The translations under genes were made by a program, and so were the position numbers. The notes under the pieces were generated by a model. It had not been told where the DNA came from. It searched no databases and worked only from the letters and a program-made list of their open reading frames with translations. A DNA stretch of 13,822 nucleotides from a virus. Of the stretch, positions 2,449 to 13,672 are shown piece after piece. Location: UHGV virus genome UHGV-0097017. The stretch is one strand, 5' to 3'. Every line of letters begins with the position of its first letter. Positions within the stretch are counted from its first letter, which is position 1.

Positions 2449-2464
2449 TGAGGTGGATCAAAAA

Positions 2465-3187
2465 ATGAAAGAACGTGGGATGATTTTTAACGATGAGATG
2501 GTCAGGGCCATCCTCGAAGGAAGGAAGACGCAGACTCGCCGACCTGTAAAAAATGTCAGGGCCGATAACTGCCTAGTTATCCGTAAACCGACAAAGAAAC
2601 GCAATGGTGTCTATACCCACGTTATGGATGCACCTGAACATGGTTTATGCCCGTTCGGTAACGTTGGTGATCGCATATGGGTCCGTGAGGCGTGGGCGAT
2701 ATTAGGCAATGAGGATGGTTGCAGTGTGGACTGGAACGACAACCTTTGTCGTGGCGATGAGAAGAACGCAGCAAGGATTTATCGGGCCAGTTGTGAGCAA
2801 AAGCCTGGTGATTACGGTTTGTGGTCGATATCCGATGATGCCGACTGGAAACCTCACACTGTGAATGAAAAGTTTGATGGCGGGTGGCGTCCATCAATTC
2901 ACATGCCGCGATGGGCATCACGCATCCTGTTGGAAATTACCAACGTGCGCGTTGAGCGGTTGAACGATATCAGCGAATGCGATGCAAGGGATGAGGGCGT
3001 TCAGCCTGCTGGAAGTTTGCTTCCTGATCACCCGGGAACATTCCTAACTCCCAAGGGAGATTTCGCAATGGCCAAGGTTGCGTTCCAGCGCCTGTGGGAA
3101 TCCATCTATGGTGAAGAATGCTGGAACGCTAATCCCTGGGTGTGGGTAATCGAGTTTGAGCGTATTCAGGGGGCAACCAGTGAGTGA
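2465..3187 (+). CDS. ASCH-like (PUA-fold) domain protein, ~240 aa
   Basis: N-terminal MIFNDEMVRAILEGRKTQTRR matches the GxKTxTxR signature of ASCH domains such as E. coli YqfB. ATG 2465 has GAGGTGG 9 nt upstream; the ORF track GTG at 2453 is an alternative. Stop overlaps the next start. Confidence 0.6.
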   Translation: MKERGMIFNDEMVRAILEGRKTQTRRPVKNVRADNCLVIRKPTKKRNGVYTHVMDAPEHGLCPFGNVGDRIWVREAWAILGNEDGCSVDWNDNLCRGDEKNAARIYRASCEQKPGDYGLWSISDDADWKPHTVNEKFDGGWRPSIHMPRWASRILLEITNVRVERLNDISECDARDEGVQPAGSLLPDHPGTFLTPKGDFAMAKVAFQRLWESIYGEECWNANPWVWVIEFERIQGATSE

Positions 3188-3440
3188 GTCAAAATGCCAA
3201 ATTAATGGCAACAAGATAGAACCGTGCGCGGCGTTGACGCAATCCCTGGAGCATGACGCTGAATACACGACGCGAAAAGGTCTGCTGAAATACAAAATCT
3301 ATAACCATGCATTAATTCATTCACAAGACCTGATCATGCTGCGGTCTGGTGAATTTTCTAAATCGCCTATTCGAGTTTCATTTTGCCCGTTCTGTGGTGA
3401 AAGTCTGAAAACGTGGGAAGCGGAGGCAACCAGTGAATAA
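3180..3440 (+). CDS. Small Cys-containing (zinc-ribbon-like) hypothetical protein, ~86 aa
   Basis: GTG start at 3180 in a GTGAGTGA overlap with the upstream stop; the ORF track's earlier start at 3156 would overlap by 32 nt. C-terminal CPFCG motif plus two upstream Cys. Confidence 0.45.
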   Translation: MSESKCQINGNKIEPCAALTQSLEHDAEYTTRKGLLKYKIYNHALIHSQDLIMLRSGEFSKSPIRVSFCPFCGESLKTWEAEATSE

Positions 3441-4077
3441 CCGCTTTTACCTGATGTGCTTGCGTGAAACTGTGGGTAATAACGCCTCATTCCATTGCCA
3501 TAACGGCAATGGTTACAGTTCTGATATCGATCGCGCTCATGTTTACACGCTGGAAGAAGCCCAAAAAGCCTGGAATTGTGGGCGAGATATCGATCAGCCT
3601 GTTTGCGCGGATAGCGTGGATGCAATGGCAGTGTGGCACGTTGATTGCCAGTACATCCCTACAGAAAGCCTGATTGAGTCAGATTGCACTGCGTATGTGG
3701 CCTACAAAAAAGGTAGCTGGAACGGCAACGATGTTTACTGGCTTCAACACGGTGGATTGCCAACAGATGACTTCAGTAAAGCGACCATCTTTAGCGTCGC
3801 CAACAAAAACGAACCAGGAATAGTTTGGTTGCCATTTTCCATTGCTGATGCAGCAAAGCGCCGGACGTTCAATATCAATAAATTTAACCGCAGAACAATG
3901 GTTCAGGGCGCAGGTTTGGTCATGCCTGACTGGTTGAAAAAGCAGAACAGAAGAAAGAAGTCGCGAAGCGGGAAGGTGCGTTGGAATTGTCCGCATTGCG
4001 GAAAAATCACCTGGCAGTACAGCCCATATGATTTTGAAGGCTGTCGTGATTACAACTGTGAAGGATGGCGAGAATGA
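3433..4077 (+). CDS. Hypothetical protein with C-terminal CxxC...CxxxxC zinc-ribbon (214 aa)
   Basis: GTG start 3433 overlapping the previous stop. C-terminus carries CPHCGK followed by CRDYNCEG, preceded by a basic KKQNRRKKSRSGK stretch. Confidence 0.6.
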   Translation: MNNRFYLMCLRETVGNNASFHCHNGNGYSSDIDRAHVYTLEEAQKAWNCGRDIDQPVCADSVDAMAVWHVDCQYIPTESLIESDCTAYVAYKKGSWNGNDVYWLQHGGLPTDDFSKATIFSVANKNEPGIVWLPFSIADAAKRRTFNINKFNRRTMVQGAGLVMPDWLKKQNRRKKSRSGKVRWNCPHCGKITWQYSPYDFEGCRDYNCEGWRE

Positions 4078-4643
4078 CAATTGACTATCAGGTACTGCGT
4101 GAGGCGGCAGAAAAGGCAACACCAGACGAATGGGTCGCATTTATTTCGACGGATACTGGTACTTATGCGGTGCACACGCCCGGTGATGAACGATGTGAAG
4201 ACGTTATCAAATGGACCGGCTTTGATGGACAGAAAAATGCAGAGAACAACGCTCGTTATGTTGCCGCGTTCAACCCAAAGGTTGCTTTGGCACTACTGGA
4301 TGAACGGGAAAGAAACCAGCAATACATCAAACGCCGCGACCAGGAGAACGAGGATATTGCGCTTACGGTTGGGAAGCTGCGCGTTGAGCTTGAGGAGACA
4401 AAATCAAAACTCAACGAGCAGCGCGAGTATTACGAGGGAGTTATCTCTGATGGGTGCAAGCGTATTGCTGAACTGGAAGCGCGGGAAGTTCAATTACCGA
4501 CTCGCTACGACCTTCGATATGGACACCCGATAAATGCAGATGAGCGACAAGTCATGATACCTAAAGAAAATGGCAGTTGGCTTTACCTGATTGACCTAGA
4601 ACACGCATTACGCGTCGCTGACATTCGTATCAAAGGAGAGTGA
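4074..4643 (+). CDS. Ead/Ea22-like coiled-coil phage protein (tentative)
   Basis: ATG 4074 in an ATGA overlap with the upstream stop. N-terminal motif TIDYQVLREAAEKATPDEW and a central coiled-coil-like stretch resemble lambdoid Ea22-family proteins, from memory only. Confidence 0.5.
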   Translation: MTIDYQVLREAAEKATPDEWVAFISTDTGTYAVHTPGDERCEDVIKWTGFDGQKNAENNARYVAAFNPKVALALLDERERNQQYIKRRDQENEDIALTVGKLRVELEETKSKLNEQREYYEGVISDGCKRIAELEAREVQLPTRYDLRYGHPINADERQVMIPKENGSWLYLIDLEHALRVADIRIKGE

Positions 4644-4918: not shown

Positions 4919-6463
4919 ATGACCACTATAACCAAAGAGCGACTGCTGACAATCAAGCAGTGGCGCGAAACATACGGACCGGGTAGCAACGTTGTACTGC
5001 CAGCAGAAGAAGCGGAAGAACTGGCACGGATTGCACTGGCATCATTGGAAGCAGATCCAGTTAAACGAGTTAACTCAGATCAGATGCACCGAGTCTGCTT
5101 AGAAGCTAATCGCTATTTAGATAAATATGACGCGATGGCGAAAGAGGTAAATAAGTTGCTTGGACGCATCGCCCCGCCAGCGCCAGTATTTAACGGCGAA
5201 TACGGTGACGCATATCAGGGCGCTCGTGAAGACCTGTCCATCTGGAAACGGCGAGCGCTTGAAGCTGATGAGCACGTTCGGCGACTGGAGCAAATCAATG
5301 ACCACATGGTGAAAGAGGCGCAGGGAGAATCACGCATGGGCGAGCCTGTAATACGTGAGCCAGCACCGGTAGTGCCTGAAGAAGCAACTCCGGAAAACGT
5401 AGAAATGCTCTCTGGCTATGTTTCAACGTACAAATTAACCGATAGCGAGCGCGATATTGCTGCCGAAATATGGAACGCCTGCCGCGCCGCCATGCTTCAG
5501 TCCGGAAACTTTCGGGAAAACAAGAATTCGTCAACCAATAATTTTCGGGAAATCGCGGAAACGTCAACCAACTATCCGGCAATTCCTAGTGAGGTGTTGT
5601 CCGCAATCCTGAAGGTTGCCAGGATTCGTGCCGATTTCGATGATTTTGACGGTGACAGGCGAGGTATCGGTGATTGTCTGGATGAGGCCGAGCAAGAGCT
5701 TATCGTTACCATTAACAAATATGCCAGTCAGTTGGCAGCAGAACCGATAGCGACTAATGACGTTCGAGAGCAAACAGCCGTTCCGCCAATACAGGCTGAT
5801 GTCGCGCAAGCAATTGAAAATCTCAAGCAGAAGTTAGTGGAATGCAATCGCTATAACTACTGCGCAGATGCAGTGAAGAACGTAGAGGATGCCTGCCGTG
5901 CTGTTAGCTATAGCCAAGCCGACAATCAGCCAGCATCTGGCAACCAGGCTGCCGAATCCAATCGCGGTAATGAGTGGACTGGCAATCCTGATATTGATAA
6001 CGCCATCATCATGCTCGACCGCATAGATACGCTGGAAAATTGCGATGATGACCGTATTGAGGCTGTTAAGGCTGTTTTGCGTAGACTGGCAGGCAACTAT
6101 CCGGATATTCCGGATAGTTCGGTGCCAGCACCAGGAAAGGGCGTCACCGGTGAACGTATCCGAATTAAGCCGCATGTTTATCGCGAACTGGTTAACCGTC
6201 TCCACGATACAGCGATCAAGTGTGCTGGCACCCAGCAATTACGAGAAAGAATTAGCCGTGTTTTGGGCGACGTTATTACACCAGATCATCATAAACAAGC
6301 CGAGAAAAGTGGCCTGGAAAGGTGTCACCTTGAGGCGGCATTAAACATTAAGCCGGGGCATACGCTTGGCATTATTGATGCACTATTGGTTCATAAGATG
6401 GCCAGGGCTTTATTGCCGCTGGTGGCTGAAAAGCATGAGGCGGACCATGCCAACGAAAGCTGA
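4919..6463 (+). CDS. Large acidic hypothetical phage protein (514 aa)
   Basis: Strong Shine-Dalgarno TAAGGAG 6 nt before ATG 4919; long uninterrupted ORF. Contains an internal ~33-bp imperfect tandem repeat (NFRENKNSSTN / NFREIAETSTN). Confidence 0.75.
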   Translation: MTTITKERLLTIKQWRETYGPGSNVVLPAEEAEELARIALASLEADPVKRVNSDQMHRVCLEANRYLDKYDAMAKEVNKLLGRIAPPAPVFNGEYGDAYQGAREDLSIWKRRALEADEHVRRLEQINDHMVKEAQGESRMGEPVIREPAPVVPEEATPENVEMLSGYVSTYKLTDSERDIAAEIWNACRAAMLQSGNFRENKNSSTNNFREIAETSTNYPAIPSEVLSAILKVARIRADFDDFDGDRRGIGDCLDEAEQELIVTINKYASQLAAEPIATNDVREQTAVPPIQADVAQAIENLKQKLVECNRYNYCADAVKNVEDACRAVSYSQADNQPASGNQAAESNRGNEWTGNPDIDNAIIMLDRIDTLENCDDDRIEAVKAVLRRLAGNYPDIPDSSVPAPGKGVTGERIRIKPHVYRELVNRLHDTAIKCAGTQQLRERISRVLGDVITPDHHKQAEKSGLERCHLEAALNIKPGHTLGIIDALLVHKMARALLPLVAEKHEADHANES

Positions 6464-6731
6464 ATTACAGGTGCGCGTAGATGAGCTTGAAAAAGAGAAC
6501 GCGAGCCTCAAAAAAATGCTGTCGCGGGCGGAAAGGGAATTATCAGGCAAATTATTGCCAGAAGAACTGCCACCAGCAGATATACCTGATCGAGTGTCCT
6601 GGTGGATGAAGTATTTCCGTGCACCGTGGGAGGCGTTTTGGTGCTACGACCATCGCAGATGGTGTGATGAACTTGATAGCAGTTTTCCCTACTTTGCGGA
6701 AGGGAACACCTGCCCTCAATGCAGGGGATAG
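6447..6731 (+). CDS. Hypothetical coiled-coil protein with C-terminal CPQC motif (~94 aa)
   Basis: ATG 6447 is preferred over the ORF-track start at 6366 because it limits overlap with the 514-aa gene to 17 nt. N-terminal ELQVRVDELEKENASLKKML heptad-like segment. Confidence 0.5.
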   Translation: MPTKAELQVRVDELEKENASLKKMLSRAERELSGKLLPEELPPADIPDRVSWWMKYFRAPWEAFWCYDHRRWCDELDSSFPYFAEGNTCPQCRG

Positions 6732-7192
6732 CATTTGACGAAATCGATCACCCTATCCTGAACTTCAGAAAGAAGGTCTTTTTCACGCGCCAGGACGTCA
6801 GGATATTGACGTTCTGGCCTTATCAGATGCCGGAGCTTCCCATTAAGCAGAATGGCCTCAGAAAACACTTTTACGCTGTGCTTTATCCCCTCTGTTTCAC
6901 TTTTCAGCGTCAAAATAAAGCGCAATTGCTTATTAGCCTGATTCGGATTCAATACACGAATTTGCAGTTCGTCTATGCTGTTTCGCAATGGGATTGATGC
7001 CACCACACTGGTGCAGTCTCTGATTGTCTGAATTGAACGGCTAACATTGAGAACGTTATTGTGCATGTGCCTGATCCACTAACTCCTGGAGGTTTCTTGT
7101 GTCAGATCGAAATATAGCAGCTAAAAGCCAGGAAGAGCGAGACAAGGTGAACGTAGACCTTGCCGCCAGCGGCGTTGCTTACAAACCCCGCT

Positions 7193-7222
7193 TTCACAAA
7201 CTATGCCTTTTCAATGTATACT
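7193..7222 (+). promoter_or_regulatory. Putative sigma70 promoter of the humD-like gene
   Basis: TTCACA (7193-7198), 18-nt spacer, TATACT (7217-7222); the -10 element overlaps the LexA box. Confidence 0.45.
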
Positions 7223-7238
7223 GTGTGAATAAACAGTA
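7219..7238 (+). promoter_or_regulatory. LexA (SOS) operator
   Basis: TACTGTGTGAATAAACAGTA fits the E. coli SOS box consensus TACTGT-N8-ACAGTA with both CTGT/ACAG arms intact; it sits 18 bp upstream of the humD-like start. Confidence 0.8.
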
Positions 7239-7256
7239 TCATTAAGGTAAAACGCT

Positions 7257-7646
7257 ATGGGCTTCCCTTCTCCTGCGGCGGATTATGTTGAAAGCCGTAT
7301 TTCTCTTGATCAGCAACTAATCAGACATCCTTCAGCGACCTACTTCATGCGGGCGGCAGACAGCCATCACCGTGAGGGAATATTGCAAGGTGCTTTGCTG
7401 GTGGTTGATTCCTCACTTACTCCGGTTGATGGCTCACTGCTTATATGCGCTATGGAGGGAGAATATCGCGTAAAAAGATACCGGAAGTATCCGCGCCAGC
7501 ACCTGGAGGATTTAAGCACCGGGAAGAAAGAGGCGTTACCAGTAGATGACGATGGTTACACGGGTAGTAATGCTGTTTTTGGTGTGATCACCCACATTAT
7601 CAATGACGCCAGGGGCGGTGAATTTGATGATAGTCCTGCTATATGA
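7257..7646 (+). CDS. humD: UmuD'-like S24 peptidase-fold protein (HumD-like), lacking the N-terminal arm
   Basis: Translation starts directly at the GFPSPAADYVE motif that follows the cleavage site in UmuD. Retains the Ser-containing ADSH segment, the LLVVD segment and the Lys-containing GEYRVKRY segment. 129 aa, the size recalled for phage P1 HumD. Confidence 0.85.
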   Translation: MGFPSPAADYVESRISLDQQLIRHPSATYFMRAADSHHREGILQGALLVVDSSLTPVDGSLLICAMEGEYRVKRYRKYPRQHLEDLSTGKKEALPVDDDGYTGSNAVFGVITHIINDARGGEFDDSPAI

Positions 7647-7780
7647 TTTGTTTTCAGAGAAACCATAGAGAGGCATGACTGGATCTATATCGCCCTGGCC
7701 ATTTAAATGATTCCTCCCATTAGACGCGGTTACTCACTTGAAGATAAGATGAGGTTATAATTCTCTTTTTAGGTACGCGA

Positions 7781-8203
7781 ATGAGTTCGTCTGCTTTTGT
7801 CACTGTTGTCACTGGAGTAAGCGTTTTTGTCCTAGGTCGACTCATCATCAAGGGGGTTGAGTCTTACATTTCATTCAAGGAACAGTTGGGGGAAATATCG
7901 CATCTGTTATTGTCTAACCAAGCAAAGCTATCGAATCCCCGCTCTGACTTAAAACAAGAAATCATCCATGATTTGAAAGATGCGGCAGCACAGTTACGGG
8001 TGAAGTACGAACTATTACCTTTCTATATCAAAATGTTACACATCGGTTTTCGCCTTGTTCCATCAGAAACTGAAATTCGTAAAGCGGCGCAAGAATTGAA
8101 TCTGATAGCCTCGATACATGATGGTAAAACCGGAGAGCTGCCATATGAGCACATAGCCAAGATTGGATTACTGCTCAGAATTCCAACCACTTATTCTGCT
8201 TAA
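7781..8203 (+). CDS. Hypothetical single-pass membrane protein (140 aa), low-GC moron-like gene
   Basis: N-terminal hydrophobic helix AFVTVVTGVSVFVLGRLII followed by a charged helical domain. A consensus TATAAT lies at 7756-7761. GC is visibly lower than the flanking humD and phd-doc genes. Confidence 0.6.
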   Translation: MSSSAFVTVVTGVSVFVLGRLIIKGVESYISFKEQLGEISHLLLSNQAKLSNPRSDLKQEIIHDLKDAAAQLRVKYELLPFYIKMLHIGFRLVPSETEIRKAAQELNLIASIHDGKTGELPYEHIAKIGLLLRIPTTYSA

Positions 8204-8305: not shown

Positions 8306-8311
8306 GTGTTT

Positions 8312-8533
8312 ATGCAATCCATTAACTTCCGTACCGCGCGCGGCAACCTTTCTGAAGTGCTCAACAATGTTGAAGCCGGGGAAGAGGTTGAAATCACCCG
8401 CAGAGGCCGTGAGCCAGCAGTAATTGTTAGCAAGGCTACTTTTGAAGCCTACAAAAAAGCGGCGCTGGATGCCGAATTTGCATCCCTGTTTGACACCCTG
8501 GACTCCACCAACAAGGAACTGGTTAACCGATAA
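8312..8533 (+). CDS. phd: Phd antitoxin (prevent-host-death), Phd/YefM family
   Basis: Translation [41 protein letters not shown]... matches my recollection of phage P1 Phd over its full 73 aa. Stop and doc start overlap by 1 nt (TAATG). Confidence 0.9.
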
Positions 8534-8913
8534 TGAGGCATATATCACCGGAAGAACTTATTGCGCTTCATGATGCGAATATAAGCCGCTACGGCGGCCT
8601 GCCGGGAATGTCAGATCCGGGTAGGGCAGAGGCCATTATCGGGAGAGTTCAGGCCAGAGTTGCCTACGAAGAGATCACCGACCTTTTCGAAGTCTCCGCC
8701 ACCTACCTGGTGGCTACGGCGAGAGGGCATATATTCAATGATGCCAATAAGCGTACCGCGCTAAACAGTGCGCTGCTATTTCTACGCCGTAACGGTATAC
8801 AGGTATATGATGATCCCGTGCTGGTGGAGCTTGCAGTGGGGGCTGCAACTGGTGAAATCCCCGTATCTTCAGTAGCGAAAAAACTACGTGAACTATATGG
8901 TTCCAATATTTGA
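8533..8913 (+). CDS. doc: Doc toxin (death-on-curing), Fic-fold kinase
   Basis: 126 aa with the Fic/Doc motif [11 protein letters not shown]; translationally coupled to phd. Confidence 0.9.
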
Positions 8914-8914
8914 A

Positions 8915-8944
8915 AAGAAGCCCGCTCAACCAGGCGGGCTTCTT
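8915..8944. terminator. Bidirectional intrinsic terminator hairpin between convergent doc and the minus-strand operon
   Basis: AAGAAGCCCGC (8915-8925), 8-nt loop, GCGGGCTTCTT (8934-8944): a perfect 11-bp GC-rich stem. The minus-strand reading ends in a TTTTC run; no T-run follows on the plus strand. Confidence 0.6.
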
Positions 8945-8948
8945 ACTA

Positions 8949-10043
8949 TCATTCAATGATTTTTTCGGCTGTCAGCCAGCTAATTTCGTGCCTGTCTTTC
9001 GGCGGTTTTAGCATGTGAGCATATTCAGCGACATGCTCCCACGGAATTGTTTTTGCCCACTCAACGATAGCATTGTGATCTGCAGTGAAGAGTGGAATAG
9101 TGTGCGATTTCAACCATTCTAATGTTGTGACGCCATGTTTTTTGGCGTGGTGCTGCGCATGATGCCGGGCTATCACTCGTAATGGCATTGTCCATTCACT
9201 ACCATCAGGCATCGAAAAGCGCATTGTCTTCGGCATATCTGATTCAAGAACAGCCTCCCTAATACCAGGGAACTCACCAAGAATCATACGACGATAGTCA
9301 TCACTATTTCGCCCGCCATACCTTTCGGCAAAATGATCAAGATATTCTTGGGTAATAAATGGTGAATCCTCCGCACTCAGCTTAATGGCTTTATATACAC
9401 CACTCGGATTATCTTCAGCTAAAGCACGTCCATGATGTGAATCATAAAAAAAGCCTATTTCCTCTGGTGACGGAATTGAAGTGAGCAATATGCGTGAATC
9501 ACCACTAGTCATGCTTGCCCACACAATGCTGTATGCCCGATCGCTGATATGTGCGGAATCCACAATAATGAATAAAAGATGGTCGGCGTAGTGACCTGCA
9601 ATGCTATCTTCATAGTTAAGGCGGTAGTTACAAAAGCACATTCCCCAAAATTCATTGAACATCAGACCGCTATCACCGACCTTAAAATACTCAATGATAA
9701 AAGGTTGTTTTTTCAGCAATGCCTCCCAACATTGCCACACATATGCAACAATTCCTCTTTTGCAAACATTTGATTTTGGATAAACAATTACTGTCCGGGA
9801 ATCAGGATACATAATCGTATAAAGGGTACTAATAACAGCAAGCACTTGCGGTCGTCCGATCCCATACGGAGTGGTGACAGTAGCTTTTGCATTATTGGGC
9901 TGTATAGCTTCAACAATTTGTTGTTGCTGGTGGCTTAAATCAATATCAAACAATTCTTTTGCTGCCAGTACCCAATTGTCTTTATATTTCTCCACCAGCG
10001 ACAGCCAGCGCGGATCTTTATAAATATTGCTCTTAGTCGCCAT
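8949..10043 (-). CDS. Hypothetical protein (364 aa), last gene of the minus-strand operon
   Basis: ATG at 10043 (translation MATKSNIYKD...) overlaps the upstream gene's stop by 11 nt; the ORF-track start at 10334 is an in-frame upstream extension. Segments LLFIIVDSAH, ILLTSIPSP and RRMILGEF loosely recall a P-loop/terminase-ATPase-like core, but no canonical Walker A (GxxxxGK[ST]) is present, so no function is assigned. Confidence 0.65.
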   Translation of the reverse strand: MATKSNIYKDPRWLSLVEKYKDNWVLAAKELFDIDLSHQQQQIVEAIQPNNAKATVTTPYGIGRPQVLAVISTLYTIMYPDSRTVIVYPKSNVCKRGIVAYVWQCWEALLKKQPFIIEYFKVGDSGLMFNEFWGMCFCNYRLNYEDSIAGHYADHLLFIIVDSAHISDRAYSIVWASMTSGDSRILLTSIPSPEEIGFFYDSHHGRALAEDNPSGVYKAIKLSAEDSPFITQEYLDHFAERYGGRNSDDYRRMILGEFPGIREAVLESDMPKTMRFSMPDGSEWTMPLRVIARHHAQHHAKKHGVTTLEWLKSHTIPLFTADHNAIVEWAKTIPWEHVAEYAHMLKPPKDRHEISWLTAEKIIE

Positions 10044-10800
10044 CTGCCACTTCCTTAACTTCTTCTTTGGCCTGTTCTGCAATCGCCGCACGGCATTTCG
10101 CCCTGGCTGTAGCGATTGCTTCAGCTCGCACATCGTCTGGAATCGTTGACGTGATATACATATCCAGTTCTTCGGCACGGAATACTGTTTGGTCCAGATA
10201 TTCGCGTAGCATCCAGGTAAATTCGAAATCACACGCGATAATCTCTGCGCTACCTTCTGCACCATTTGGGAAATGAATAAATGCCTGTTTAGCCAAACCG
10301 ATAACACGACATGCGGTTGCCAAAACAGCGACAACCAGGTTTACATTTTCACACGCTACGGGCTGATTAACGCCGGAGATTACTCCATTTAACTGTCGGT
10401 TATATGGAAGGTAGTTTGAGATGCGTTCTACGCGCCATGTGCCAGTCAGGCTGCCATTTTTAAAGATAATTGGTGTAACGGATAGCCCAAACTCGCGTAT
10501 AAGTCGTTGCGCTATAGCAGGATCATTAAACAGGTCTAATGCTACACATTCGAAAGACTGTGCAAGGGTAAACAGTTCTTCAAGAGAGTAGTCTTTGCCC
10601 CTGGCGGTGATGTAACGATGAACGCCGCTTTCTGCATCACTCCATATAGCTACGCCATGCTCTTCATTCAGCTCTTCATTAAAGCCGAGATACGTCATGA
10701 TAGTGCGTTCAATCGTGTCAAACGGCAGTGACATGTCGGCGTTAACAGCCACCAGCAGGCCATTACGCAAGCGGTATTGAATTGTTTTAGTGCTTTCCAT
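10033..10800 (-). CDS. Hypothetical protein (255 aa) with acidic Ala-rich C-terminal tail
   Basis: ATG at 10800 lies 6 nt after the upstream gene's stop, with GGAG upstream. No motif recognised. Confidence 0.65.
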   Translation of the reverse strand: MESTKTIQYRLRNGLLVAVNADMSLPFDTIERTIMTYLGFNEELNEEHGVAIWSDAESGVHRYITARGKDYSLEELFTLAQSFECVALDLFNDPAIAQRLIREFGLSVTPIIFKNGSLTGTWRVERISNYLPYNRQLNGVISGVNQPVACENVNLVVAVLATACRVIGLAKQAFIHFPNGAEGSAEIIACDFEFTWMLREYLDQTVFRAEELDMYITSTIPDDVRAEAIATARAKCRAAIAEQAKEEVKEVADGD

Positions 10801-10806
10801 GTCAAA

Positions 10807-11247
10807 TCACTCCACAACAAACCAGTCACAGGCCAGCAGGTCGCCAACTGAAGGCACCCACGGAACAACTACACCTTGTGCATTTTTTAAGGCGAAATAA
10901 GCACCATACGGAACGAGGTCGCCGGGGAAATATCCCTTAATGGCTTCCATTCGTGCCGGGTACTGTCCTTCAGGAACCAGCCAGCAGAATTGGTTTTCGC
11001 CGTTCCACCCGCGTCGAGCAACTTTCTTGCCTTCCTTCAGCCACATCAGCGCGTCTGAAAAGTCGGCTGCTTCAAGGTCGATTTCTTCTTGCTGGGTGGT
11101 GATGCCACCAGCAGAAATAGTTACGCTCCCGGTAAGATTAATCATCACGCCGTTGTCATCCGTAATGATGACCGTGGTTCCATTTTTTTTGTGAGCTTTG
11201 TATTTGGGACGGAACTTAAAAAGCTCTTTCGTTGCCATGTTATTCAT
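10807..11247 (-). CDS. DUF2829-like domain protein with ~60-aa N-terminal extension (146 aa)
   Basis: C-terminal FSDALMWLKEGKKVARRGWNG ... PYGAYFALKNAQGVVVPWVPSVGDLLACDWFVVE matches the recalled DUF2829 pattern (ALxxLKxGxKVxRxGWNG ... PWxxSxxDLLAxDW). Starts 14 nt after the dut stop. Confidence 0.65.
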   Translation of the reverse strand: MNNMATKELFKFRPKYKAHKKNGTTVIITDDNGVMINLTGSVTISAGGITTQQEEIDLEAADFSDALMWLKEGKKVARRGWNGENQFCWLVPEGQYPARMEAIKGYFPGDLVPYGAYFALKNAQGVVVPWVPSVGDLLACDWFVVE

Positions 11248-11261
11248 AGTCTTTTCTCTGC

Positions 11262-11756
11262 TTATAACTTTTCGTACTGAAGCGGTGAACGCTTAATTTC
11301 AAAGTGGCCTTCCGATGTGCTACCAAAGCCACCAGCACCACGCTCCGTTTCGTTGAGTTCCTCAACCTCGACTAGTGAGACTTGTTCAACACGCTCAAAA
11401 ATTCCTTGCATGACAGCCATTCCAGGCTTGAGACAAACGCCTTCCCCGCCGGGATCAGTAATCAGTTTTGCCATGATTTCGCCGCGATAATCGGAGTCGA
11501 TAATTCCTACGCAGTTAGCCAGGCGAGTATGTTTTTTGCAGCCCAATCCTGATCGCGGATAGAGTTTCAGACACCAGCCGGGCGGGATCTCCATAGCCAG
11601 TCCGGTATACACCCACCAGCTTGAGGAAATTGCACCATTGCTATCGACGCATGGTTTTATTTCAACAGCCTCAAAATCCATCGCCGCCGATCCGGAGGTG
11701 GCATAAGCTGGAAGTTTTGCTGCCGGATGTAGGCGTTTCACTTTTACGTAAATCAT
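11262..11756 (-). CDS. dut: dUTP diphosphatase (trimeric dUTPase) with short C-terminal extension
   Basis: Conserved dUTPase motifs AYATSGSA, PRSGLG, GIIDSDYRGE and RGAGGFGST. About 14 extra residues follow motif V compared with E. coli Dut. Confidence 0.85.
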   Translation of the reverse strand: MIYVKVKRLHPAAKLPAYATSGSAAMDFEAVEIKPCVDSNGAISSSWWVYTGLAMEIPPGWCLKLYPRSGLGCKKHTRLANCVGIIDSDYRGEIMAKLITDPGGEGVCLKPGMAVMQGIFERVEQVSLVEVEELNETERGAGGFGSTSEGHFEIKRSPLQYEKL

Positions 11757-12235
11757 TGTTTTTTAGCTCTCTGCGTGAAGGTGTAAACCCGACGTTTGAT
11801 ATGTGGAACGGTAGGAACAGGAAGACAGGAACTTTCAATAACTCCTTGCTCATCCAGCGATCGCACCGCCCGCAAGAACTGCGACGTGTCGCCGCCAAAC
11901 TGGCGGGCATAGGTGCTGCCGTTATGAAGTATTTGAGCTATTACCCGAGTTTTTGTCTGGCTGTCACGATATGCGAATAGCCGCACGGCCTCTTCTGGCG
12001 CAATCGCTAACTGATAGCCTTTCCCGGCACGGTGTCGAATGAATCCATGCGCCAGTAGGTTTTTGAGTTCGTTACGAGTGCGAACAGATCCGTAACCCAG
12101 GAAGTGTGGATTGATAACGACTGGCTTAAACCATTCCGTAGGTGCTTTAGCTAATAGAGCTAACAGCTTCCCGGATAATTCTGGATAGGAAGACGGGTAA
12201 CAATTCAGAGATGGGTAATAAGTTTTCACCGACAC
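11753..12235 (-). CDS. Hypothetical protein (160 aa), possible winged-helix DNA-binding segment
   Basis: GTG start at 12235; stop overlaps the dut start (ATGA, 4 nt). The C-terminal segment SQFLRAVRSLDEQGVIE resembles a wHTH recognition helix; this is inference. Confidence 0.5.
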   Translation of the reverse strand: MSVKTYYPSLNCYPSSYPELSGKLLALLAKAPTEWFKPVVINPHFLGYGSVRTRNELKNLLAHGFIRHRAGKGYQLAIAPEEAVRLFAYRDSQTKTRVIAQILHNGSTYARQFGGDTSQFLRAVRSLDEQGVIESSCLPVPTVPHIKRRVYTFTQRAKKQ

Positions 12236-12570
12236 CCCCTTGCAGGATATCGACCGGCATTAGTATCCGGTGCAATAAAGCCGGTAGTGGGGCGAGTGAA
12301 AGCGAGATTAATCTTCTCGACCATAGTGCGATAATTTTCCTGATAGTGGGCCAGGAGTTTTTCGGCGGCAATGATGGTTACTTTCCGGACGTAGCTTTCT
12401 GCTTCCTCCAGATTTCGCCAGTTTTTTTCGAGGGTAAACACAGGGACGGCCTCAAGCCCGGTCATGATGCCGAACACAACGACAGCATGACTGTTCTTAA
12501 CACCAGCGGCGAAGGTTACGGTGTAACCATCCACCTTGAAGCGTCTTGATTCCGTGATTTGACTCTGCAA
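12226..12570 (-). CDS. Hypothetical protein (114 aa)
   Basis: Strong Shine-Dalgarno AGGAGGG 5 nt upstream of a TTG start at 12570. The overlapping plus-strand ORF 12211-12549 is less protein-like. Confidence 0.5.
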   Translation of the reverse strand: MQSQITESRRFKVDGYTVTFAAGVKNSHAVVVFGIMTGLEAVPVFTLEKNWRNLEEAESYVRKVTIIAAEKLLAHYQENYRTMVEKINLAFTRPTTGFIAPDTNAGRYPARGCR

Positions 12571-12643: not shown

Positions 12644-13672
12644 TTACGAATCCATCAGGCGGCTATTAGCCCCCACAGACACGCCGCCACGGCGAAGATA
12701 CCGCATAAGTGTTTCCGGTTTCTTCCAGGTTCCTTCCTGCATGATCTCCACCATAGACACCTGCTTTTCAGCCATATCAATAGCGGCCCCGACGCGTGCA
12801 CTATGCCCGGTCCACGTCCGGTATCTTCCTTTGTTTGGCGTAGCATCTCTTTTATTCAGCAACACCCAGGCGTCGCTGAATATTTTCTCCATTGCAGGTG
12901 CAGTAAGGGGCGTTGTCGTGATCCTGGCCTTATTGCTACGGTGTATCGGCGGGAACAGCACTGCGTCAGGATGTTCGCGAAGCCCGGAAACATCCAGCCA
13001 GTCATTCAGCACAGCGGTAGTGCGACGGGAAAGCACCTTATCAAGCCCGGCGGCGGTCGTTATTGTCTTCGTGTGTGAAATATGTAGCGTGACAGTGTCA
13101 CCTGTTTGATCCAGATCTCCTACACGAATACGCGAGATTTCCGACATACGCATCAGCGTATTGTATGCAACAAAGAGAAAAGCCCGGTTGCGCAGGTCCA
13201 CCAGCCGTTCTGACCTGGACAACAGGACGTCGAGCAGTTTCAGATCGTCCCACCGCAGCGGTATAGCCTGGCCTGTTCGTTCGCCTTTTTCAGTTGCCGC
13301 TTCACGCCGGATGCGCCGCATAGCCAGAGAAACACTTTTATCATCCGAAAGTGGCGGAAGGCCACAATGCGAAAGCAGCATGTTAAGCATGGCGTAGTGC
13401 TTATCAATGGTGGTCGAAGCCAGATCAGCATCATGCAGCTGAAGAAAATACTCGCGGGCCATCTCTGGTGAGATCGGGAACCAGGCGAGCTGGCGAGCGT
13501 GACACCATCTCGCCCAGGAGTGAAACACTAACCGGAGATCGCGCAAAGTATTCGGCGCGTAAGCCCCCTGGTCATTCATGAACCGCATAAAGTTTTCTGC
13601 GGCCTCCTGGTACTCTTTGCCAATGTTGCGCAGAAAACCACCGGAGCTGCCAGAGATAATTAATTCACTCAT
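12644..13672 (-). CDS. Cre-family tyrosine site-specific recombinase (Cre/Dre-like), divergent from P1 Cre
   Basis: 342 aa, colinear with P1 Cre (343 aa). Shared blocks include VSLAMRRIRRE, NRAFLFVAYNTLMRMSEISRIRV, WTGHSARVGAA and IMQEGTW. Catalytic R (SRIR), K (HTKT), H-x-x-R (HSAR), W (GTW) and Y (RYLR) are all present. Overall identity to Cre is clearly partial, by eye about 40-50%. Confidence 0.9.
   Translation of the reverse strand: MSELIISGSSGGFLRNIGKEYQEAAENFMRFMNDQGAYAPNTLRDLRLVFHSWARWCHARQLAWFPISPEMAREYFLQLHDADLASTTIDKHYAMLNMLLSHCGLPPLSDDKSVSLAMRRIRREAATEKGERTGQAIPLRWDDLKLLDVLLSRSERLVDLRNRAFLFVAYNTLMRMSEISRIRVGDLDQTGDTVTLHISHTKTITTAAGLDKVLSRRTTAVLNDWLDVSGLREHPDAVLFPPIHRSNKARITTTPLTAPAMEKIFSDAWVLLNKRDATPNKGRYRTWTGHSARVGAAIDMAEKQVSMVEIMQEGTWKKPETLMRYLRRGGVSVGANSRLMDS

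Follow-up and report, generated by a model that had tools for sequence, protein, structure and literature searches.

What is a block of three tightly packed genes doing behind a dUTPase gene (dut) in a phage-plasmid: do the genes form one system, or do separate accessory genes happen to share a transcriptional string? The question is raised by positions 8949-11247 of UHGV virus genome UHGV-0097017, whose whole analysed stretch of 13,822 nucleotides (nt) is called the window here. Its closest matches mark the window as a D6-like phage-plasmid of the P1 type from E. coli; phage D6, itself of the P1 type, persists in lysogens as a plasmid. Across region 8900-11800, the identity to non-mobilizable E. 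coli plasmids of ~90 kilobases (kb), for example NZ_CP074704, amounts to 99.3%, and the match to phage D6 (98%) covers dut, the gene for a protein of 146 amino acids (aa) and most of the 255-aa gene. The three genes of the block are the following, the last being called pTerL (pseudo-terminase) throughout.

10807-11247, minus strand: Tad2-family gene (146 aa), from a Pfam Tad2-like match
10033-10800, minus strand: IsaA homologue (255-aa gene), 47% identity to P1-type IsaA, PHROG 2326
8949-10043, minus strand: pTerL (364-aa gene), coordinates of the open reading frame (ORF)

Our comparison demonstrated that the three genes are independently swapped accessory modules and not one machine. The block is best read as a counter-defence or conflict gene cluster: it probably constitutes the distal end of a cre-proximal accessory string and holds three separable modules, namely a Tad2 sponge, IsaA and a pTerL of the binding type.

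The evidence for separability comes from the co-occurrence of all window genes, which was followed by tblastn on 38 related loci, 36 of them D6-like viral contigs. isaA was present at all loci compared. pTerL followed it in ~17 of the 36 viral-contig loci and was missing from the remainder, and the Tad2 slot occurred in three sizes or empty, in all combinations with pTerL. At the pTerL-bearing loci identified by ortholog search (n=20), pTerL stood directly after isaA wherever the position was read out. Phage D6 itself lacks pTerL and has a pdcA-like gene instead; this small gene lies after doc (L001:5735-5932), where the window (8913-8949) has pTerL, and the doc-proximal boundary of the variable slot therefore also differs between relatives.

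A second context for the same genes is provided by the P1 lineage. In the IS1-free P1 relatives MH422554, MH445380 and vB_EcoM-813R1, a 52%-identical pTerL follows isaA with an 8-nt overlap, so that the pair with overlapping stop and start codons recurs at two loci; there pTerL is located between ssb and hxr, beside the ddrB-ddrA-darA (Dar) anti-restriction genes. The order in SJ46 is ssb, long Tad2, isaA and hxr, and in P1 the operon with ssb and isaA is C1-controlled and early. The variable neighbours of isaA in these two contexts indicate that the slots on both of its sides are insertion points for accessory genes. As for dut, it is confined to the D6 lineage and absent from the P1-lineage locus (ssb-isaA-...-hxr) and from distant isaA-bearing relatives; the dUTPase is context only and makes no functional unit with the trio.

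An earlier note on this DNA had treated the trio as one block coupled to dut and had suggested its function from that linkage. Neither co-inheritance of the trio nor a functional reading of the linkage is supported by these data, since Tad2 and pTerL come and go around a constant isaA and dut is missing where isaA persists. The nucleotide- or DNA-modification function that the note had considered finds no support either, as none of the three proteins has a modification-enzyme domain. Its other suggestion, a role in anti-defence or defence, held in its first half, given a member of the Tad2 anti-defence family in an accessory region of conflict type, but not in its second: a search of the defence models of PADLOC-DB with the three proteins and four neighbouring proteins returned no match at E <= 0.01. 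Pfam matches to DUF5076, EFP and RasGEF were below threshold and were ignored.

The pseudo-terminase

The earlier note could assign no motif to the 364-aa protein. Paralogy to the ATPase domain of PacB, the large terminase of P1-type phages, was found in the present analysis, and it divides the protein into two parts.

9258-10043, minus strand: pTerL residues 1-262, a degenerate PacB/TerL-type ATPase domain (BLASTP, hhalign, Foldseek, motifs)
8949-9257 (8952-9257 without the stop codon), minus strand: pTerL residues 263-364 plus stop codon, replacing the nuclease domain (profile family)

BLASTP aligned residues 7-259 with residues 10-264 of the 502-aa PacB belonging to the same element type, at 37% identity (E 4e-56); the identity to P1/P7 PacB is 33-35%. 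The hhalign comparison with PacB reached a probability of 100%, over residues 5-262 only, and pTerL matched PHROG 5902 together with a weak match to the TerL family phrog_2. The AlphaFold2 (AF2) model of pTerL is of low confidence, with a predicted local distance difference test (pLDDT) score of 57.5 from a six-sequence alignment; its top Foldseek matches were the TerL ATPase domains of HK97, P74-26, T4 and Sf6, and we regard fold searches on AF2 models from such shallow alignments as weak evidence. In the tree, pTerL forms a monophyletic sister clade of the P1/D6 PacB proteins. The real pacA-pacB of the element lie elsewhere: in the best-matching plasmid they are found on the far side of cre. 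The 364-aa gene, an additional copy of accessory character, is adjacent neither to pacA nor to portal genes.

The motifs were compared in a nine-sequence alignment of four real terminases and five pseudo-terminase lineages. That the protein has no canonical Walker A, as the earlier note had observed, is borne out: the window reads TPYGIGRP, versus SGxGxGK[ST] in real terminases. The pattern across the five lineages is T-P-x-G-I-G-(R/Q/H/R/E)-x, in which G-K-[ST] has become GRP, GQK, GHK, GRA or GET and the preceding SG has become TP in every lineage. The Walker B motif is IIVDSA in the window versus hhhDEA in real terminases; none of the five lineages has kept its aspartate (V, T, M, V or I stands there), and only one has kept the catalytic glutamate. 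Among the 38 ATPase positions that are invariant in the four real terminases, 17 are kept in all five pTerL lineages, including the adenine-recognition Q motif, two P-loop glycines, G-x-FYDSH and ...G-x-F, and 10 are lost in all five, including S61, G62, K67 and D167.

As Walker A, Walker B and the nuclease domain all fail, pTerL is not a terminase; the alignments and the tree identify it as an ancient duplicate of the PacB ATPase domain, that is, a degenerate paralogue. The earlier note had named homology to packaging proteins as the result that would speak against its proposal, and the 364-aa protein does have such homology, but only in this degenerate form. In the literature on P1 and D6, we found no description of the pTerL gene or of a terminase-like decoy, and pTerL is a previously undescribed derivative of a terminase.

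The ratio of non-synonymous to synonymous substitution rates (dN/dS) of pTerL was 0.06-0.31 in both domains, with 0.06-0.17 in the C-terminal domain; in the N-domain, the comparison with locus L028 gave 3 non-synonymous versus 13 synonymous changes. By this measure, pTerL is under purifying selection. Full-length pTerL was present in 163 records of the plasmid collection versus 453 with full-length IsaA, approximately one third, and intact full-length ORFs were also found in several phages. Three deeply diverged full-length lineages (window/P0007, P0004-P0006 and P1-like) share the same length and the same 17 invariant positions. Further, N-domain alleles only ~55% identical to one another pair with PacB proteins that are 92-100% identical, indicating that pTerL diversifies independently of the packaging machinery. 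The Walker and catalytic residues are thus lost, yet the fold and surface motifs are kept under purifying selection, which points to a binding role as a pseudoenzyme; on this evidence, pTerL would most likely work by binding, as a mimic of the terminase ATPase domain.

The C-terminal domain belongs to another family than the nuclease that it replaces. Residues 263-364 gave no alignment to the PacB nuclease domain, the profile-profile alignment ending at residue 262. A shrunken nuclease had been considered on a hint from MAFFT, and was rejected because profile-profile comparison gave no support and a separate widespread family was found. This family comprises at least 943 clusters; its members are early phage and prophage proteins of ~100 aa that stand alone and match no Pfam model. 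In phage JK004 the neighbour is DnaB; lambdoid and Acinetobacter prophages carry the gene in accessory regions of the nin and recombination types, and in Xanthomonas CP2-like phages the domain forms the C-terminal end of a 471-aa protein adjoining recombinase, exonuclease and SSB genes. They typically lie between replication genes and ninB or in recombination modules, with occasional fusions to larger proteins, and their conserved residues include MxDxSxW, PLF, W-A and W (e.g., L046:4001-4297; L047:1888-3303; L052-L057).

The Tad2-family protein and the IsaA homologue

For the 146-aa protein, the DUF2829-type C-terminal domain seen by the earlier note was confirmed by Pfam PF11195 (now Tad2-like) at 81.6 bits versus a cutoff of 25 (E 5.9e-23). 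The match covers residues 62-145 and profile positions 2-73 of 73, and the extra N-terminal segment also reported there is an extension of 57 aa (residues 1-57).

10810-11076, minus strand: Tad2 domain, residues 58-146 (Pfam/PDB matches)

The best PDB sequence matches were to ModTad2 (9eib, E 8e-21; 8v3e, E 1e-20), while SPO1 Tad2 was far weaker (E 1.4e-9) and AcrIIA7/HgmTad2 likewise much weaker. The alignment with ModTad2 spans 88 of 88 residues at 46% identity and contains one gap of 1 residue. By homology, the 146-aa protein is a further member of the known Tad2 anti-defence family, within the ModTad2 clade. His-ADPR, which is the signal of type II Thoeris, is sequestered by ModTad2 and by close homologues, one of which comes from an enterobacterial prophage; a second pocket of ModTad2 binds the cUMP/cCMP of Pycsar, and Tad2 proteins work alone as sponges (bioRxiv 10.1101/2024.01.03.573942; 10.1101/2025.08.24.671296). 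By analogy with these homologues, the 146-aa protein would form tetramers that sequester immune signals made by TIR or cyclase enzymes, and would protect the element at infection or induction. Its likeliest predicted ligands are the His-ADPR of type II Thoeris and possibly the cUMP/cCMP of Pycsar.

The N-terminal extension varies strongly among relatives. Sister elements carry alleles of 216-235 aa with an additional N-terminal domain of ~80 aa that belongs to no known family, and SJ46 has a 281-aa form; the 225-aa allele in L003 shows that the 146-aa form of the window is an in-frame deletion of 79 codons. Because sister alleles retain the extra region, the extension in the window is the remnant of a longer N-terminal region. 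The allele of L005/L010 has a shorter Tad2 core without the ModTad2-type insertion, and the gene is missing from 2 loci. Relative to the window allele, dN/dS of the Tad2 gene was 0.3-0.67, above that of dut or cre (0.01-0.2). The slot between dut and isaA (L003:7317-7994, L005:7344-7994, L028, L030; window 10807-11247) is an allele-swapping hotspot in backbones that are otherwise 95-100% identical.

The 255-aa protein, for which the earlier note saw no assignable relationship, proved to be related to IsaA of P1: its full-length identity to IsaA of P1-like phages is 47%, and it matches PHROG 2326 with E 6.5e-133. By these criteria, it is a P1 IsaA homologue and a member of a known orphan family. 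An exhaustive profile search among 1.84 billion proteins yielded only 40 representative clusters, and those examined belong to P1-type phage-plasmids of ~90-100 kb, at a syntenic position downstream of cre. A scan of genome contigs for IsaA gave no match, and even a 24-member profile gave no Pfam or PDB sequence match. The motifs conserved family-wide are NGxLxGxW[RK]VE, GxG[KR]xA[YF] and PELDxY; no recognisable catalytic signature was found among the conserved positions. A PD-(D/E)xK nuclease fold was weighed as a candidate for IsaA, and no fold could be assigned to the family. The dN/dS of isaA was 0.1-0.5, and its AF2 model, from a 14-sequence alignment, is of low confidence (pLDDT 65.9).

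In P1, isaA comes after ssb in one operon, and the C1 operator Ossb overlaps the promoters of that operon; isaA was non-essential in a genome-wide CRISPR interference screen (PMC10695390). The annotated P1 gene (L041:1070-2032) encodes 320 aa, and its homology to the IsaA of relatives (255-264 aa) begins ~59 codons in; the annotated start may be mis-set. The possibility that P1 isaB is a remnant of the pseudo-terminase split by IS1 was rejected because no similarity was found. Distant IsaA homologues (22-25% identity) occupy the same position downstream of cre in other P1-type phage-plasmids of ~91-101 kb (L049, L050 and L051 at 6001-7900; L048 at 6001-7700), where the downstream cargo is a DUF4406 protein followed by a ParD/ParE toxin-antitoxin pair. 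As the cargo differs there, the slot after isaA is confirmed as a place where cargo inserts.

Locus layout and neighbouring genes

The gene order on the minus strand, taken from the annotation of NZ_CP074704 and D6-type records and from Pfam and PHROG scans, is cre-like recombinase, 114 aa, 160 aa, dut, 146 aa, 255 aa and 364 aa. The string converges on plus-strand phd-doc, which is annotated likewise in D6 and in plasmid NZ_CP074704. The features around the block are as follows.

12644-13672, minus strand: Cre-like recombinase (Phage_integrase)
12226-12570, minus strand: 114-aa gene (PHROG 1968)
11753-12235, minus strand: 160-aa gene (PHROG 6669)
11262-11756, minus strand: dUTPase, 164 aa (Pfam dUTPase, E 1.7e-14; PHROG 135)
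8915-8944, both strands: bidirectional intrinsic terminator hairpin (scanner match and folding)
8306-8913, plus strand: phd-doc toxin-antitoxin pair, bounding the block (Pfam PhdYeFM_antitox, Fic/DOC)

The neighbours from cre through the 114-aa and 160-aa genes to dut are close or overlapping on one strand, and the synteny from cre over small genes to isaA is kept even in distant P1-type phage-plasmids. Reading of the junctions reproduced the spacing given by the earlier note: 14 nt between dut and the 146-aa gene, 6 nt between the 146-aa and 255-aa genes, and an 11-nt overlap, ATGGCGACTAA, between the 255-aa and 364-aa genes. A Shine-Dalgarno sequence, AAGGAAG, lies 6 nt 5' of the ATG of the 364-aa gene; such a good site within the end of the 255-aa gene fits translational coupling of the 364-aa gene to isaA. 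A mechanical ORF list also contains a longer, TTG-started ORF of 461 aa (8949-10334), which extends the 364-aa gene upstream through isaA in another frame; the ATG of the 364-aa gene is the start in all homologues and in the RefSeq annotation. One entry in the public databases, P0002, has 438 aa and the name 'Terminase large subunit' and is apparently this over-extended call.

The strong bidirectional terminator of the earlier note was likewise recovered, as a G+C-rich hairpin of 12 base pairs. The stop codons of doc and the 364-aa gene are 35 nt apart, and the hairpin sits in this space. Its folding energy is -21.6 kcal/mol on the plus strand (z -6.4) and -20.2 kcal/mol on the minus strand (z -4.0), where the hairpin is followed by UUCUUUUC; none of 200 shuffles of the hairpin gave an equally stable fold. 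An Rfam scan gave no match.

The left part of the window carries, on the plus strand, typical early accessory genes of lambdoid and P1-like phages. They encode a calcineurin-like (lambda PP-type) phosphatase (633-1355), a DUF968 protein that is pdcB-like in D6 (1453-2448), an Ead/Ea22-like protein (4065-4643) and a UmuD'-like HumD (7257-7646); the ORFs without a family in this part include 2453-3187, 3433-4077 and 4919-6463. In the 160-aa gene, non-synonymous changes exceed synonymous ones among close relatives, e.g., 5-7 versus 0-3, for a nominal dN/dS of >=1 on small counts, and distant comparisons gave 0.06-0.1. The excess may be noise or recent diversifying selection.

Proposed roles, rival explanations and known systems

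What might a catalytically dead terminase domain bind? EcAvs2 and Upx sense the TerL ATPase domain, and Avs2 and Avs3 read bound ATP together with active-site residues; EcAvs2 also recognises T4 vs.8, a paralogue of the TerL ATPase that stands alone (PMC13601566). Based on this evidence, we tentatively propose that pTerL acts on host sensors of the terminase ATPase domain (Avs1-3, Upx) by titrating or poisoning them. A somewhat more doubtful proposal is that it interferes with the PacA/PacB-type packaging of competing relatives. We infer both, and the sensor decoy is ranked slightly above the partner of the packaging machinery. In the most far-reaching form of the sensor-decoy proposal, which we consider unlikely, pTerL would be an early-expressed, ATP-blind copy that binds Avs1-3 or Upx without licensing oligomerisation and so blunts detection of the later PacB; IsaA would be its co-translated partner, and the fused C-terminal domain would serve for localisation or for binding a further target. 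What the proteins bind, as ligands or as partners, and when they are expressed are likewise our inferences.

Several points weigh against this reading. By analogy with T4 vs.8, a TerL-like decoy could trigger Avs instead of blocking it, and competitive decoys are a weak strategy against abortive-infection sensors. We found no terminase-like anti-Avs protein in the literature, and the two anti-Avs proteins that have been reported are unrelated to terminase. That stand-alone relatives of the C-terminal domain are found in regions for replication and recombination and in nin regions could instead mean a role in DNA metabolism. The loss of the Walker motifs is read from sequence, and residual nucleotide binding is possible, as the Q motif and two P-loop glycines persist. 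As regards the timing of expression in D6-like elements, a scan of the window with the P1-type C1 operator consensus gave no match. Finally, the ligands proposed for the Tad2 protein follow from clade similarity only, and the functional roles suggested for pTerL and IsaA are likewise sequence-derived, with AF2 models of low confidence.

Other explanations of the block were considered. pTerL could be a dominant-negative or regulatory subunit of P1-type packaging, which takes part in PacA, pac-site or portal complexes while being unable to hydrolyse ATP or to cut DNA, and which either holds back premature pac cleavage of the plasmid prophage or blocks the packaging of superinfecting P1/D6. This is compatible with homology that starts at residue 5-7 and includes the N-terminal helices of PacB and the invariant G-x-FYDSH patch, with the loss of the nuclease domain, with an accessory distribution like that of exclusion genes, and with the place of the P1-type gene in the early C1-controlled operon, expressed before late pacAB. 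We nevertheless consider it unlikely: an interface shared with PacB would need to tolerate the large divergence of pTerL alleles (~55% identity) that coexist with PacB proteins of 92-100% identity, and two thirds of the elements have no pTerL, which indicates that it is unneeded for their own packaging control. Superinfection exclusion in particular is disfavoured, as C1 repression in P1-like lysogens would silence the gene.

The same absence from about two thirds of related elements, the lost catalytic motifs and the dispensability of isaA for P1 plaque formation could instead suggest that the 364-aa gene is a decaying pacB duplicate without function and isaA likewise selfish filler. This is very improbable, because decay accords poorly with intact full-length pTerL in 163 plasmid records and several phages, with a low dN/dS across both domains made up of many synonymous and few non-synonymous changes, with three deeply diverged lineages that hold their length and 17 invariant positions, and with the conserved translational coupling and Shine-Dalgarno sequence. 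That the trio is one co-functional system coupled to the dUTPase, for nucleotide or DNA modification or for defence, can draw on the tight or overlapping same-strand genes ending at a strong terminator and on the isaA and pTerL pair recurring at two different loci. It is very improbable in view of the independent presence of Tad2 and pTerL around a constant isaA, the lack of dut from the P1-lineage and distant loci, the negative searches for modification-enzyme domains and PADLOC matches, and the solitary action of Tad2 proteins as sponges. A counter-defence cluster of separable modules, with pTerL as a terminase mimic, is the reading that we favour.

This reading matters for several reasons. 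Bacterial innate immunity senses few phage proteins as widely as it does the large terminase (through Avs1-3 and Upx), and to our knowledge no phage countermeasure is aimed at the step of terminase recognition. A selected, catalytically dead terminase-ATPase paralogue beside a Tad2 sponge, and beside the Dar genes in P1 relatives, is a candidate for such a countermeasure or for packaging interference between phages. If the decoy reading is true, pTerL would mimic a pathogen-associated molecular pattern, and no earlier anti-defence protein would have worked by imitating the very phage protein sensed by the host. P1/D6 phage-plasmids are common in clinical and livestock E. coli and Salmonella, and the swapping of Tad2 alleles at a fixed slot in them bears on which host immune systems can be overcome. 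In addition, isaA has stood as an orphan gene of the model phage P1 for 20 years, and this work offers a first approach to it.

Compared with known systems, the 146-aa protein resembles ModTad2 of a Myroides odoratus prophage (PDB 9EIB, 8V3E) in a domain match over the whole length, including the segment after beta2 that distinguishes ModTad2 from SPO1 Tad2, and in being encoded by a temperate phage element. It differs in the 57-aa N-terminal extension, and other alleles of the slot lack the ModTad2-type insertion. The 255-aa protein belongs to the same family as P1 IsaA (gp017, the 'IS1 insertion-associated' gene of the ssb operon), at the full-length identity given above, and isaA is directly upstream of the pseudo-terminase in the IS1-free P1 relatives as it is here. 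In P1, however, isaA follows ssb and has IS1 and the unrelated isaB downstream, whereas in the window it lies downstream of cre, dut and Tad2.

With PacB, the large terminase of P1/D6, pTerL shares a homologous N-terminal ASCE ATPase domain (32-37% identity), the Q motif, two P-loop glycines, the G-x-FYDSH patch and the domain boundary at ...LGxFP. Unlike PacB, it lacks the lysine and serine of Walker A, the aspartate of Walker B, mostly the catalytic glutamate, and the RNase H-like nuclease domain; it is accessory and not universal, and it evolves faster than PacB. Its closest precedent is T4 vs.8, which is likewise encoded by a phage, stands alone and is paralogous to the ATPase domain of that phage's TerL. 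Compared by description, the two differ in that vs.8 keeps Walker A and Walker B, whereas pTerL has lost both and has gained an unrelated C-terminal domain.

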